Sequence record: CP052943.1
From: a plasmid
Length of the DNA stretch: 45,985 nt
Direction: 5' to 3' (one strand)
Both the position numbers and the translations under genes were made by a program. Numbering within the stretch: the stretch's first letter is position 1; every line of letters starts with the position of its first letter. The notes under the pieces were generated by a model, which worked only from the letters and a program-made list of their open reading frames with translations, had not been told where the DNA came from and made no database searches. Shown here in pieces: positions 22,016-37,521 of this stretch.

Positions 22016-22312
22016 ATGGCTGTTGATAATCTTATTCCAACAGACTATAGAAAGTTAGTTCTAACTGCAACTCAGTATAAAGATCCAATGATGAATTATT
22101 TAACTGAAGACTTAGAAAGACGTGATAAATTACTTTTTATTATGGTGCATCATGAGAAAAGTCTTACAGAAATTATAAACTCAGAAGATAAAAATTTGGA
22201 AGATGCGCAATTTTGTATCAAACAGCTAGTTAGTAACATTAGTAATTTATATGTTCTGTCAGAAGTGCAAGATATGGATAGAAAGTATCAAAAGGGAGAG
22301 ATTGAATATTGA
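22016..22312 (+). CDS. Hypothetical 98-aa protein, co-operonic with CHAP protein
   Basis: 4-nt overlap with downstream gene. Confidence 0.45.
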
Positions 22313-22932
22313 GAAAGTGGTTAGTTGTACTTATTATTGCTTTTACAGTCGTTGCTGGATTGCCGTCTAATGCTAATGCTAAAACGACGTACACAGCAGA
22401 TAAACACGTACAAAATATTGCTACCGATCATAGTCAAATCAATAAAAATACAGAAAAACAATTAAATGCTAAACGAGTTCAAACATTTTTAGCAACACAA
22501 GATAATATCAATTTTATTAATGATACACTACAAGGGCGTGGCTGGGACTTTGATAATTTTGCAGGCTACCAGTGTTTTGATTTAGTTAATGTCTATTGGT
22601 ATCACTTATATGGTCATGGACTCAATGGAATGTATGCTAAAGATATACCGTTCCAAAATGATTTTACTAATGAGGCGAGCGTACATCAGAATACACCATC
22701 TTTTAAGGCATATCCCGGTGACGTAGTTGTTTTTGGTAATTCTTATGGAAAGGGAATGGGACACGTTGCTATAGTTACTAATGGTAATGTGGACGGCAAT
22801 TGGAATAAATTCGAAAGTCTTGATCAAAATTGGAATCATGGAGGAATTAACAAAACAGAGAAAGCACACAAAGTTGTTCATAACTATGATACAAGATCAG
22901 GACAAATGTATTTCATCAGATCTTTTAGATAA
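22309..22932 (+). CDS. Secreted CHAP-domain peptidoglycan hydrolase (SsaA-like)
   Basis: Signal peptide ...SNANA; CHAP Cys in GYQCFDLV and His in MGHVAIVT. Confidence 0.7.
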
Positions 22933-23208
22933 CTAGAATTCAAAAAAAGAATTTTCTAAAGTAATAAAAAGTACATTTACCCCCAGCTTATAACAAAAGT
23001 TGGGGGTATTAATTCTTAACTATTGAGCATACTAAGCACATCATTATACGCTCGCTTATATTCTGCTTTGGATGGATTAACTTCTGCTTTGAAGTGATAA
23101 AACGCTAAAAGCCCGTGATATTCCTCTGTTGTAAGGTTGTTTGGAATATTAAGATTTGATTAAAAGCATTTAACTTAAATCAAATGAGTAAAGGAACGTT
23201 CTTTTACT

Positions 23209-23236
23209 TTGACAATTGTCCTGTTTCGTGATAATT
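23209..23236 (+). promoter_or_regulatory. Promoter of antisense sRNA (TTGACA-N15/16-GATAAT, TG-extended)
   Basis: ttgacaattgtcctgtttcgtgataat. Confidence 0.5.
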
Positions 23237-23242
23237 TATTAT

Positions 23243-23305
23243 TAAATAACTAATGAAAACATGGGAAAACCCTCCAACCGTCGCCTCGGTATAGGAGGGT
23301 TTTTT
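23243..23305 (+). ncRNA. Candidate roughly 63-nt antitoxin sRNA (RNA II-like) of a type I TA. Contains aactaatgaaaacatgg, complementary to the toxin start region, and ends in the bidirectional terminator 23266-23305
   Basis: Promoter upstream, terminator aaaaccctcc...ggagggtttttt downstream; 19-nt identity with toxin TIR locus (23395-23413). Confidence 0.5.
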
Positions 23306-23315
23306 GTGTCATCTC

Positions 23316-23411
23316 TTAGCTATTGTGCTTGTTCTTAAGATGTACGATGTACATCATTATAAGGTCGCCTAGCACGTTAGCTATAAGTGTACCTATAACT
23401 AATGAAAACAT
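23316..23411 (-). CDS. Type I toxin-like 31-aa hydrophobic peptide (Fst/par-like architecture)
   Basis: aaggaggtga SD, 7-nt spacer, ATG; MFSLVIGTLIANVLGDLIMMYIVHLKNKHNS (TM helix plus basic tail). Convergent with the sRNA and sharing its terminator. Confidence 0.55.
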   Translation of the reverse strand: MFSLVIGTLIANVLGDLIMMYIVHLKNKHNS

Positions 23412-23577
23412 GGTCTCACCTCCTTAACATGTCAAAAAAATGTTAGAGGCACGATGACACAACCATTTATTATATCATATGTATAATATAACAAAAGGAC
23501 AAAGAAATTAAATTGACGTATTTTTTGAGTGAAAAAAAGGACTTACAATGTAAGTCCTTTTCATTAGTTTATAAGTT

Positions 23578-24018
23578 TTATGAAATCTGATCCTGAGCAG
23601 TGCCTCTATCAAGATATTCATAACTATAATTTTTACCATTAAAAATGACGTGTCCTTGATACTTTTTATCTAAATCGTGTGCTTTATCTTCTGTAAATAC
23701 CCAATCGATACAATTCACTACAAAAAATTCTTCTGATGGATTAATAGAATATATTTCTTTTTTGAGCGTTTTCTCCATTTTTTTACTATAGACTTTAATC
23801 TTAAAGTTATAAGGAGTTTCACTTTGGTTTGGAAAAATATTTAGTGTATAGTGAGACGTGTTTCTTTTTTCAGTAAATAAAAACTTAGGATTCAAGGACT
23901 TGTTTACATACTTAATCTCATCTGATTTTGTATACTTATATTTGTATTTAAAAAATAAATAACAGCCTAGTAGGGATGCAATAACAACAAACAAAATAAC
24001 GTCGATTAATAATTTCAT
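23578..24018 (-). CDS. Membrane-anchored hypothetical protein (146 aa)
   Basis: N-terminal TM LIDVILFVVIASLLGCYLFF. Confidence 0.45.
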   Translation of the reverse strand: MKLLIDVILFVVIASLLGCYLFFKYKYKYTKSDEIKYVNKSLNPKFLFTEKRNTSHYTLNIFPNQSETPYNFKIKVYSKKMEKTLKKEIYSINPSEEFFVVNCIDWVFTEDKAHDLDKKYQGHVIFNGKNYSYEYLDRGTAQDQIS

Positions 24019-34861: not shown

Positions 34862-35452
34862 ATCATTTTCGTTCGTATTTTCCTATAGAAAATACACAAG
34901 GTGCTAATGAAGATTCATTAGCACCTTGCCATTAAAATACTGATTTATTTTATTTCTGTCTTTATCAGGTAAGATTTGCACAATTTGAATGAATTCTGAT
35001 TGATTATTCTTATCCTTTAATGGTTTAAAAGTTATATTACTCATATACACGTGATAGTTTAAATGCTATCAAATTTCATCTTCCTTTCTCATAGAAAATA
35101 CTGATATTTACACTCGCTCATATTCTCTTGTTTTTCTTCTCTAATTAGGGAGTATTCTAGAAAAACACTTACACTAGCTAATAAAATATTCAATGATTTT
35201 AACAATATAATACTTTTTCTTCTCATTTGAATTCTCCTTGTTAAATGATATAATAAAATCAAATTGAAGGAGGAGTTAGGGCTCCTCCTTACTGAACTAG
35301 TCTACTAATTCAGTAATTAAAGTTATTATTGCTCTTAATAAGTTAATTAAGCTTATTAGGAGCTTTTTTGTTGATTCTTTCAATGTGGAGCCAACCTCCT
35401 TCAAATTAATCTCTCACTACCCAGCCAACCACCACATAGTGAGAATGGCATC

Positions 35453-36489: not shown

Positions 36490-36747
36490 ATGAAAAGTAA
36501 AACACCAACAGAAGCTCGTAAAGATTTTTATCAGTTATTAAAACGTGTGAATAATGACCATGAACCAGTATATATTGAAGGCAAATATGATGAGAGTAAT
36601 GCTGTTATTATAGGCATGGAAGATTGGCGTAGCATTAATGAAACGATATATCTTGAGGCTACAGGCACAATGGACAAAGTTAGAGAACGTGAGCATGACA
36701 ACAGTGGTTATACAAACATAGATGATATTGATTGGGCTAGACTTTAA
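36490..36747 (+). CDS. axe: Phd/YefM-family antitoxin (Axe-like)
   Basis: 85 aa, ARKDFYQLLKRVNNDHEPVYIEG typical YefM N-terminus; overlaps toxin start. Confidence 0.75.
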   Translation: MKSKTPTEARKDFYQLLKRVNNDHEPVYIEGKYDESNAVIIGMEDWRSINETIYLEATGTMDKVREREHDNSGYTNIDDIDWARL

Positions 36748-37013
36748 TGGCTAAATATAAAATCAACATAAAGAATTCAGCAAAGACAGATTTAAAGAAG
36801 ATAAAACGTTCTCACTTACAAGAGCAATTTTTGAAAATCGTAGAAATACTAAAATATGATCCATATCAACAAAGTCAATCCTTTGAAAAATTGCACCCTA
36901 AACATTTAGGACGATACTCAAGACGTATCAATCATCAACATAGAGTTGTCTATACAATTGATGAGGAAAATAAAGAAGTATTAATATTAGCAGCTTGGTC
37001 TCATTATGAATGA
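36747..37013 (+). CDS. txe: YoeB/Txe-family toxin (mRNA interferase)
   Basis: 88 aa; KLHPKHLGRYSRRINHQHRVVYTIDEENKEVLILAAWSHY matches the YoeB C-terminal catalytic region. Confidence 0.75.
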   Translation: MAKYKINIKNSAKTDLKKIKRSHLQEQFLKIVEILKYDPYQQSQSFEKLHPKHLGRYSRRINHQHRVVYTIDEENKEVLILAAWSHYE

Positions 37014-37332: not shown

Positions 37333-37521
37333 ATGAATACATTGAATACAGTATTGTTGCTAATAGGTTTATTTATTTTAACACCCTCAATGATGTATTT
37401 ATTTATTTATCATGTAGTTAATGCGACCGTTTCTTATCAAAAGTACAAAACTAAAACGAGTGTTTTTACAAATATAGAGGATGTAAAAAGATTAAATATA
37501 ATGTGCCTCAAAATTTATTAA
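37333..37521 (+). CDS. Small membrane peptide (62 aa)
   Basis: SD aaggagtg plus ATG 37333; TM VLLLIGLFILTPSMMYLFIY. Confidence 0.4.
   Translation: MNTLNTVLLLIGLFILTPSMMYLFIYHVVNATVSYQKYKTKTSVFTNIEDVKRLNIMCLKIY

Follow-up and report, generated by a model that had tools for sequence, protein, structure and literature searches.

At about positions 23180-23490 of the plasmid sequence CP052943.1 (45,985 nucleotides (nt); this whole stretch is referred to below as the window) lies a compact segment of ~310 bp, which contains a minus-strand open reading frame (ORF) for a 31-residue hydrophobic peptide and, converging on it from the plus strand, a predicted gene for a small RNA (sRNA). We consider this segment likely to be a par-like type I toxin-antitoxin cassette, and for brevity the peptide gene and the sRNA are called the toxin and antitoxin genes throughout, both roles being predicted. 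The features recognized in and beside it, with the basis of each assignment, are:

23209..23237, plus strand: sRNA promoter with TTGACA (23209-23214), a 17-nt spacer and the extended -10 TG-a-TAATTT (23229-23237); read from the sequence
23244..23305, plus strand: predicted antitoxin sRNA, ~62 nt, both ends inferred; fold of -22.5 kcal/mol, z = -4.2
23246..23264, plus strand: direct repeat copy 1, the sRNA seed ATAACTAATGAAAACATGG; exact 19-nt repeat
23266..23305, both strands: shared bidirectional intrinsic terminator, AAAACCCTCC...GGAGGGTTTT followed by a T-run (plus strand); inverted repeat and folding
23304..23313, minus strand: 3' arm GAUGACACAA of the helix sequestering the mRNA 5' end, between the stop codon and the terminator; inverted repeat, minimum free energy (MFE) and centroid folds
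23316..23411, minus strand: toxin ORF, 31 amino acids (aa), MFSLVIGTLIANVLGDLIMMYIVHLKNKHNS; ORF list, length kept in 8/8 intact loci
23395..23413, minus strand: second copy of the direct repeat, where the sRNA would bind the toxin mRNA, CCAUGUUUUCAUUAGUUAU, from 2 nt before the AUG through codon 6; exact repeat
23416..23425, minus strand: Shine-Dalgarno (SD) sequence AAGGAGGTGA; read from the sequence, invariant in all variants
23419..23449, minus strand: 5' stem-loop with the anti-SD CCUCUAACAU, pairing AUGUUA-AG-GAGG; centroid and 5'-fragment folds
23453..23462, minus strand: 5' arm UUGUGUCAUC of the helix sequestering the mRNA 5' end; inverted repeat and fold
23469..23477, minus strand: toxin promoter, extended -10 TG-a-TATAAT; TGATA(T/G/A)AAT kept in all intact variants
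23502..23497, minus strand: weak -35-like TTGTCC of the toxin promoter; promoter scan, overlapping TTGTCC-17-TATGAT
23558..23569, minus strand: third, inverted copy of 12 nt of the seed, AACUAAUGAAAA, of uncertain membership in the module; 3 matches in the window as against 0.08 expected

The predicted toxin mRNA accordingly extends from about 23464 to about 23262 on the minus strand, a length of roughly 200 nt. The segment was seen only in staphylococcal plasmids (12-14 records of PLSDB and 15 metagenome contigs), and none was recovered from phage genomes or viral contigs, nor from species-representative genomes scanned with a protein pattern and with a DNA pattern of the conserved 5' untranslated region (UTR). 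Intact modules were found at eight loci representing five or six sequence variants, namely the window type and those of loci L002/L011, L007, L008/L009 and L010/L019, and it is against these variants that each element was compared.

The first-pass annotation of this DNA, made from the letters alone, had drawn attention to the 31-aa ORF (23316-23411) and its strong SD (23425..23416), both of which withstand comparison across the variants. The peptide is exactly 31 residues long in all eight intact loci, with 15 invariant positions, and the ratio of nonsynonymous to synonymous differences (pN/pS) is 0.07-0.30 for well-diverged pairs, also when the codons overlapping the sRNA target are omitted. 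Judged by this pattern of substitution the ORF is a genuine gene, whose peptide is under purifying selection. Strong hydrophobicity marks residues 1-25 (grand average of hydropathy 1.84), which are followed by a K/N/H-rich tail, KNKHNS, while AlphaFold predicts one helix over residues 2-30 (mean confidence score, pLDDT, 91). A peptide of ~30 aa with a single transmembrane helix and a polar or charged tail resembles the Fst/Ldr toxins, but this architecture is generic to most type I toxins. The module had been described as unannotated, which holds for the plasmid feature tables, where nothing is marked; the exact peptide is nevertheless present in GenBank as "hypothetical" and once as "CrcB/FEX". 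The latter name, denoting a fluoride exporter, is a misannotation: a CrcB protein would match the CrcB models above the cut-off over its ~120 aa and four helices, whereas the peptide scores 14.5-15.4 bits against cut-offs of 101-119 and covers a single helix. An antisense ORF of 34 aa (23323-23427, plus strand) was not accepted as a gene, since a stop codon interrupts it in L002 and it lacks an SD.

The two copies of the 19-nt repeat (23246-23264 and 23395-23413), whose exact identity had been noted before, are the only matches in the 46 kb of the window even with 3 mismatches allowed, as against 0.07 expected from shuffled sequences. The earlier proposal that they make the sRNA perfectly complementary to the toxin mRNA from the spacer through codon 5 was correct as to perfect pairing over the start codon and needed adjustment in its extent, the pairing starting 2 nt 5' of the AUG and ending at the second base of codon 6. 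A truncated duplicate of the toxin 5' end, reported in the sRNA gene, is likewise real but is merely repeat copy 1 read on the minus strand. The 6-codon mini-ORF contained in that copy was discarded: it is not conserved in other variants, and its apparent SD, GGAGGG, is the arm of the terminator.

In a covariation test the sRNA 5' tail of each variant was joined to its own translation initiation region and the base pairs were counted, over 7 distinct sequences and a 20-bp intermolecular helix, with 500 shuffles and five measures. Standard pairs occupied 98.6% of the cells in this helix, changes on both sides were found in 8 of the 20 pairs, and on none of the five measures did any of the 500 shuffles come up to the real sequences; with the register shifted, pairing fell to 25-54%. 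Differences between the two repeat copies of one locus, which represent about 4 independent events, are without exception U:G or G:U wobbles in the RNA duplex. On this comparative evidence the sRNA-mRNA pairing is under selection, and the restriction of mismatches to wobbles, resting on only about 4 independent events, argues for selection at the level of the RNA. The duplex anticipated by the first-pass annotation is also recovered by energy calculations, in which cognate tail-mRNA pairs reach -26.9 to -30.3 kcal/mol, whereas the window type combined with any other variant yields about -7 to -14 kcal/mol, close to the shuffle background of -8 to -9. The L002, L007 and L010 types are partly cross-reactive among themselves.

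The sRNA promoter, with its TTGACA at 23209-23214 and TGATAAT at 23229-23235, was found as originally proposed, and its layout recurs in nearly all variants as -35 TT(G/T)ACA, 17 nt, TGnTAnnnT, 6-7 nt and (G)AAATAAC, even as the sequences themselves have diverged. The window sRNA is predicted to leave nt 1-20 unpaired and then to form the terminator hairpin, which together with its T-run agrees with the intrinsic terminator first described at 23266-23305; the sRNAs of six variants fold alike, each with a free 5' tail of 20-23 nt and a hairpin (z = -4.0 to -5.4). Since all sRNA variants have a free 5' tail, the seed falls exactly in the accessible part of the molecule. Folding forms the terminator hairpin (23266-23303) in both RNAs, which overlap there by about 40 nt, and its stem shows compensatory changes in other variants (GAACCCAGCAG, GACCCTAGTAG and GACCCCAGCAG). 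By inspection, the apical terminator loops contain no clean YUNR motif (AGGCGA/UCGCCU in the window; UUGC/CUGCAA types in other variants); this motif is not present in every par homologue according to a review (PMC7472228) and hence does not strictly define such loci. A CCCUCC resembling an anti-SD in the terminator arm of the window was considered as a second contact site and rejected because the other variants lack it.

For the predicted ~200-nt toxin mRNA the fold is much more stable than for shuffled versions of it (z = -5.45). Its 5' end would be sequestered by a perfect helix of 10 bp, which begins 1-3 nt from where the conserved extended -10 (TGATAnAAT) would place the mRNA 5' end, has a probability of being unpaired of 0.03-0.05 in its 5' arm, and is retained in all variants with only U-A to U-G changes. 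A stem beside the SD had also been noticed previously; the TAACAT/ATGTTA pairing is present and extends into CCTC/GAGG, and hence includes the SD itself. A stem-loop holding the SD is predicted in all variants; the SD is mostly paired with the upstream anti-SD CCUCUAAC in these folds, the probability of its being unpaired lying between 0.09 and 0.31 in five variants.

The third copy of the seed lies outside the two interacting regions, in the 3' UTR of the upstream 146-aa gene and beside a terminator hairpin at 23535-23561. When a read-through transcript is modelled, the MFE and the centroid folds alike pair this copy with toxin codons 2-8, in a helix that grows to about 17 bp. The same copy is present in module-less plasmids, and in L002-type plasmids it is unchanged despite their differing toxin codons, showing no covariation. 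It may be a relic or a chance match, or may constitute a built-in fail-safe that, in a read-through transcript so modelled, folds back on the first toxin codons.

For the assessment of the locus as a whole we took the criteria for par-like loci from PMC7472228, where Weaver lists as conserved features convergent promoters, a bidirectional terminator, direct repeats, and sequestration of both the mRNA 5' end and the SD. Convergent promoters are recognizable at the consensus level, with both geometries conserved, and the shared terminator, the direct-repeat pairing to the translation start and the 5'-end sequestration are all found. As read from the sequence and from folding models, the RNA anatomy thus reproduces the five Weaver features, the SD sequestration being a predicted fold beside which another pairing of the anti-SD is also predicted. 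The earlier appeal to the logic of pAD1 par therefore stands with regard to trans pairing through a direct repeat and to the shared terminator, but not with regard to the paired repeats DRa and DRb, there being one repeat here.

The peptide itself presents a different picture, and its designation as Fst-like found no support. Neither NF033608 (NCBIfam; two peptide variants) nor PF13955 (Pfam; five variants) matched at E <= 10, whereas the positive controls Fst, PepA1 and PepA2, whose sequences were validated by these very matches, scored 34.7-58.3 bits against NF033608 with a cut-off of 26. Remote homology to Fst was pursued and rejected: hhalign of the peptide family against the three controls gave a probability of 9%, and BLASTP against PepA2 produced no alignment. 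No Trp and no Cys occur anywhere in the peptide variants. Fst/Ldr peptides have a conserved Trp where the transmembrane helix gives way to the charged C-terminus; the corresponding residue 24 is His in the window and Tyr in the others. Fst of pAD1 has a Val at this boundary position, so the absence of Trp alone does not exclude membership. All variants have [S/T]xxxG at residues 3-7, at the N-terminal edge and followed by Thr rather than Cys, whereas in Fst/Ldr the P/D/S/TxxxG motif lies inside the transmembrane helix and is followed by Cys in all staphylococcal members; Gly15 of the window peptide is Ser in every other variant. A phmmer search of 1.84 billion representative proteins returned only the query itself, a sequence search of PDB chains, solved type I toxin structures included, gave 0 matches, and the peptide string was not found in the literature searched. 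In Pfam, NCBIfam, PADLOC and PHROGs the only matches were low-scoring one-helix ones to CrcB, Syndecan and unknown phrogs. Rfam yielded 0 matches over the whole window at gathering thresholds, and a permissive scan of the locus nothing near threshold, the matches listed being terminator-driven noise. By all the sequence tests applied the peptide is thus no detectable Fst/Ldr family member; it is best described as a putative toxin of an undescribed type I family, under par/Lpt-like RNA control and not homologous to Fst.

Several observations indicate that the cassette acts as one unit: a close relative lacks it as a block, it has diverged inside conserved flanks, and it occurs in varied flanking contexts. 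In the sister plasmid L005 about 300 bp (roughly 23180-23490) are missing en bloc, which delimits the cassette. Between the window and L002 (NZ_CP121500) the flanks are 95-100% identical and the transcribed module (23240-23450) only 76-86%, with both promoters nearly identical despite the divergence of the transcribed part; a divergent module is therefore carried within a conserved backbone. The drop in identity suggests either an exchange of allelic cassettes or a speeding-up of divergence in the interacting RNAs. Metagenomic variants occur in other contexts, beside genes for a CPBP protease, a membrane protein and LPXTG proteins, and their flanks match plasmids of S. hominis and S. epidermidis.

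A second group of loci has lost the toxin. In L004 (NZ_CP093174) a 149-nt deletion lies exactly between the two repeat copies (equivalent to 23265-23413 of the window) and has removed the toxin ORF and the terminator, and what is left is the sRNA promoter and the seed, joined to the toxin leader in antisense; the regulatory repeats therefore also provide a built-in route to toxin loss. In further remnants the 5' half of the toxin gene is lost or replaced, with retention of the terminator, the sRNA gene and the sRNA promoter; these comprise L003 (pSE1, NZ_CP066375), NZ_CP043848, seven metagenome contigs (L012-L018), L006 (S. saccharolyticus p13T0028), L020 and L021. All of the orphan antitoxin loci carry the window-type seed, with predicted duplexes of -23 to -27 kcal/mol with the window toxin mRNA. 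In strain PH1-28 the orphan window-type sRNA gene on pSE1 coexists with pSE2, a plasmid with the same 45-kb backbone and no module. Such orphan sRNA genes may spread as anti-addiction elements, by which a cell sheds, or resists killing by, a window-type plasmid.

Based on the Weaver-type anatomy, together with the precedents of the Lpt and SprA2 systems compared below, we infer a mechanism combining a damped toxin mRNA with sRNA blockade. The extended -10 promoter would direct synthesis of the minus-strand mRNA for the single-helix membrane peptide, and this mRNA would be stable yet poorly translated, with its 5' end locked in the 10-bp helix and its SD held in the local hairpin. The stronger convergent promoter would supply the sRNA, a molecule with a free 5' tail of ~20 nt ahead of the shared terminator hairpin. 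This sRNA would pair over the toxin AUG, possibly nucleating at the complementary terminator hairpins, and thereby block ribosome loading. Upon plasmid loss the sRNA would no longer be replenished, and the peptide would be made and damage the membrane, resulting in post-segregational killing. Transcript ends, relative half-lives, toxicity of the peptide and the plasmid-stabilizing role are presumed in this scheme, and addiction by such killing is plausible on a conjugative plasmid.

A number of points weigh against this interpretation. The peptide matches no known toxin family, and its toxicity is deduced solely from size, hydrophobicity and context; the plasmid already encodes another toxin-antitoxin pair, YefM/YoeB, and natural toxin-deletion derivatives are viable. 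At the RNA level, a simple consensus promoter scan did not call the sRNA promoter, the U-tract of the terminator on the toxin strand is short (UUUUCC), which makes efficient termination in that direction uncertain, and the transcription start sites, 3' ends and relative RNA half-lives are predictions. An alternative predicted fold pairs the same anti-SD with codons 5-9, and because the bases of the SD hairpin are invariant, covariation can neither support the hairpin nor separate the two folds. The concerted change of nearby direct repeats, for its part, could stem partly from gene conversion rather than from selection for pairing.

The last point can be carried further, to the claim that the 19-nt repeat is only a duplication scar or a gene-conversion tract, with control exerted solely through the 3' overlap in the manner of SprG/SprF or TxpA/RatA, or even that the ORF is a chance one or a CrcB fragment. 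Gene conversion can homogenize nearby direct repeats, the two RNAs do share some 40 nt of overlap in the terminator, and one source does label the peptide CrcB/FEX. However, 8 of the 20 pairs covary and the differences between copies are only wobble-compatible; in every sRNA variant the seed is positioned exactly within the unpaired 5' tail, and it falls exactly over the start codon. The low pN/pS, well below 1, and the invariant length of 31 aa rule out a chance ORF, and the CrcB matches amount to 14-15 bits against cut-offs of 101-119 over one helix only. We regard such an origin as most improbable. A different objection would accept the RNA anatomy as real and take the peptide for a small membrane protein, benign or regulatory, whose level an antisense RNA adjusts, with neither toxin nor addiction involved. 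This would accord with the lack of homology to known toxins and with the frequency of deletions and truncations of the toxin gene, which is evidently dispensable. Yet the several predicted layers of repression, acting at the 5' end, at the SD, through an sRNA over the start codon and through a stronger convergent promoter, are the signature of a harmful product; the anatomy matches par feature for feature; and the remnants keep the sRNA gene and lose the toxin 5' half, as a toxic peptide and a protective sRNA would lead one to expect. A benign peptide is hence unlikely.

One may also grant a functional type I toxin-antitoxin system and place its main role elsewhere than in stabilization, in competition or exclusion between plasmids or in anti-phage abortive infection, with the alleles and orphans being products of an arms race. 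The module is indeed a hot spot of divergence (76-86%) in a backbone that is 95-100% identical, its diverged seeds insulate the window type from the other types, orphan sRNA genes are widespread and uniformly carry the window-type seed, one strain combines an orphan sRNA on pSE1 with the module-less pSE2, and YefM/YoeB is already present on the plasmid. This proposal shares the regulatory mechanism with post-segregational killing and differs from it solely in the biological role; the evidence for it is correlative and comes in part from one strain, and neither phage-related contexts nor matches in phage and viral collections were found. We think it improbable as the main role. A broader scenario, which we offer as no better than speculative, is that the cassette is one allele of a specificity-diversifying series of type I toxin-antitoxin systems used between plasmids of coagulase-negative staphylococci, with insulated groups of co-evolving seeds and targets, anti-addiction orphans and the third seed copy as a fail-safe.

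Should the proposed par-like cassette prove correct, it would represent a new peptide-toxin family for staphylococci. It is absent from the feature tables of related plasmids and invisible to Pfam, NCBIfam, PADLOC, PHROGs and Rfam, and its description is useful for annotation; to the specialist it would hold no conceptual surprise. The natural seed/target variants, the repeat-mediated toxin deletion and the orphan antitoxins would then offer material on specificity and anti-addiction, and the same material would serve studies on how stably skin staphylococci maintain their ~46-kb conjugative plasmids.

The window is a complete circular plasmid, with repA straddling its two ends, and is near-identical to ~46-kb plasmids of Staphylococcus epidermidis such as pSTA491. 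Plasmids of this type encode a MobP2 relaxase, a VirD4-like coupling protein, an ATPase and CHAP hydrolases, and additionally a topoisomerase IA, a sortase and an LPXTG protein; the relaxase and the VirD4-like protein, together with these other genes, mark the backbone as one of conjugative type. The cassette is situated between a CHAP-domain gene on its left (22309-22932, plus strand) and, on its right, a 146-aa gene without known function (23578-24018, minus strand), beyond which lies an ArdC/DUF3991/Toprim gene. The YefM/YoeB type II toxin-antitoxin pair of the window (36490-37011) is 93-99% identical to that of pSTA491, and as it is present besides the cassette, the plasmid stacks at least two maintenance modules. 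In pSTA491 a "putative holin-like toxin" of 31 aa is annotated in addition, which the window lacks.

At its left margin the cassette adjoins two further features. A deletion of 112 nt at 23147/23148, private to the window in comparison with pSTA491 and its other relatives, has cost a 56-aa hypothetical gene (WP_002502786.1, minus strand), located just beyond the sRNA promoter, its start and upstream region. Directly abutting the -35 of that promoter, at 23187-23208, is a near-perfect palindrome of 22 nt, AGTAAAGGAACGTTCTTTTACT; it lies within the cassette, is missing in the module-less plasmid and is kept in L002, and could be an operator or a hairpin stopping minus-strand read-through. Elsewhere in the window, other small hydrophobic ORFs with good SDs were observed at 35297-35383 (minus strand), 35089-35226 (minus strand) and 37333-37521 (plus strand). 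One of them, of 28 aa, MKESTKKLLISLINLLRAIITLITELVD, is followed by the GC-rich hairpin AAGGAGGAGCCCTAACTCCTCCTT. None of the three has an NCBIfam match.

Among known type I systems, hok/sok of R1 and AapA1/IsoA1 of Helicobacter pylori also keep the toxin mRNA inert by long-range pairing with its 5' end, as proposed here. Unlike the present locus, they activate the mRNA by 3' processing, their antitoxins overlap the 5' region in cis, and they are not known to have a shared terminator or a direct-repeat logic. Closer at hand, within the same genus, are the SprA systems of S. aureus. In SprA1/SprA1AS and SprA2/SprA2AS the antitoxin is cis-encoded, overlaps the toxin mRNA only at the 3' end and represses it in trans, its non-overlapping 5' domain binding the ribosome-binding site and start region of the toxin and blocking ribosome loading, and the paralogues show no cross-regulation (PMC6393315); this non-crosstalk parallels the insulated seeds described above. 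Such action in trans was demonstrated for SprA2/SprA2AS (PMC6393315). Their peptides PepA1 and PepA2 are, however, of the Fst family with a PxxxGC/SxxxGC motif and are encoded on the chromosome or a pathogenicity island, whereas the cassette is plasmid-borne and has a perfect 5' complementarity of 19-20 nt.

The locus further resembles par of pAD1 from Enterococcus faecalis (RNA I/Fst and RNA II), with which it has in common the convergent promoters, the shared terminator and the repeats over the translation start, as well as, by prediction, a hairpin sequestering the SD and a helix masking the extreme 5' end of the toxin mRNA (PMC7472228). Both encode a ~30-aa toxin or predicted toxin with a single helix on a conjugative plasmid, and the RNAs are of comparable size, about 200 nt (toxin mRNA) and about 62 nt (sRNA) here as against ~230 and ~40 in par (PMC7472228). 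The two differ in that par has DRa and DRb and starts with GUG, whereas the locus described here has one contiguous repeat of 19-20 nt, starts with AUG and lacks a clear YUNR U-turn in its terminator loops. With respect to the repeat, the Lpt RNA I/RNA II system of Lactobacillus rhamnosus and L. paracasei plasmids provides the better counterpart: like the present locus as read and predicted, it has a single contiguous repeat (24 nt) that includes the start codon, a predicted 5' upstream helix, an SD-containing stem-loop and an antitoxin promoter stronger than that of the toxin, and it is likewise plasmid-borne (PMC5608710). Lpt was found by its homology to Fst and has the APxxxG motif (PMC8309996), neither of which applies to our peptide, and the host genus is different. 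In its single-repeat layout the staphylococcal cassette is nonetheless closer to Lpt than to the DRa and DRb arrangement of pAD1 par (PMC5608710).

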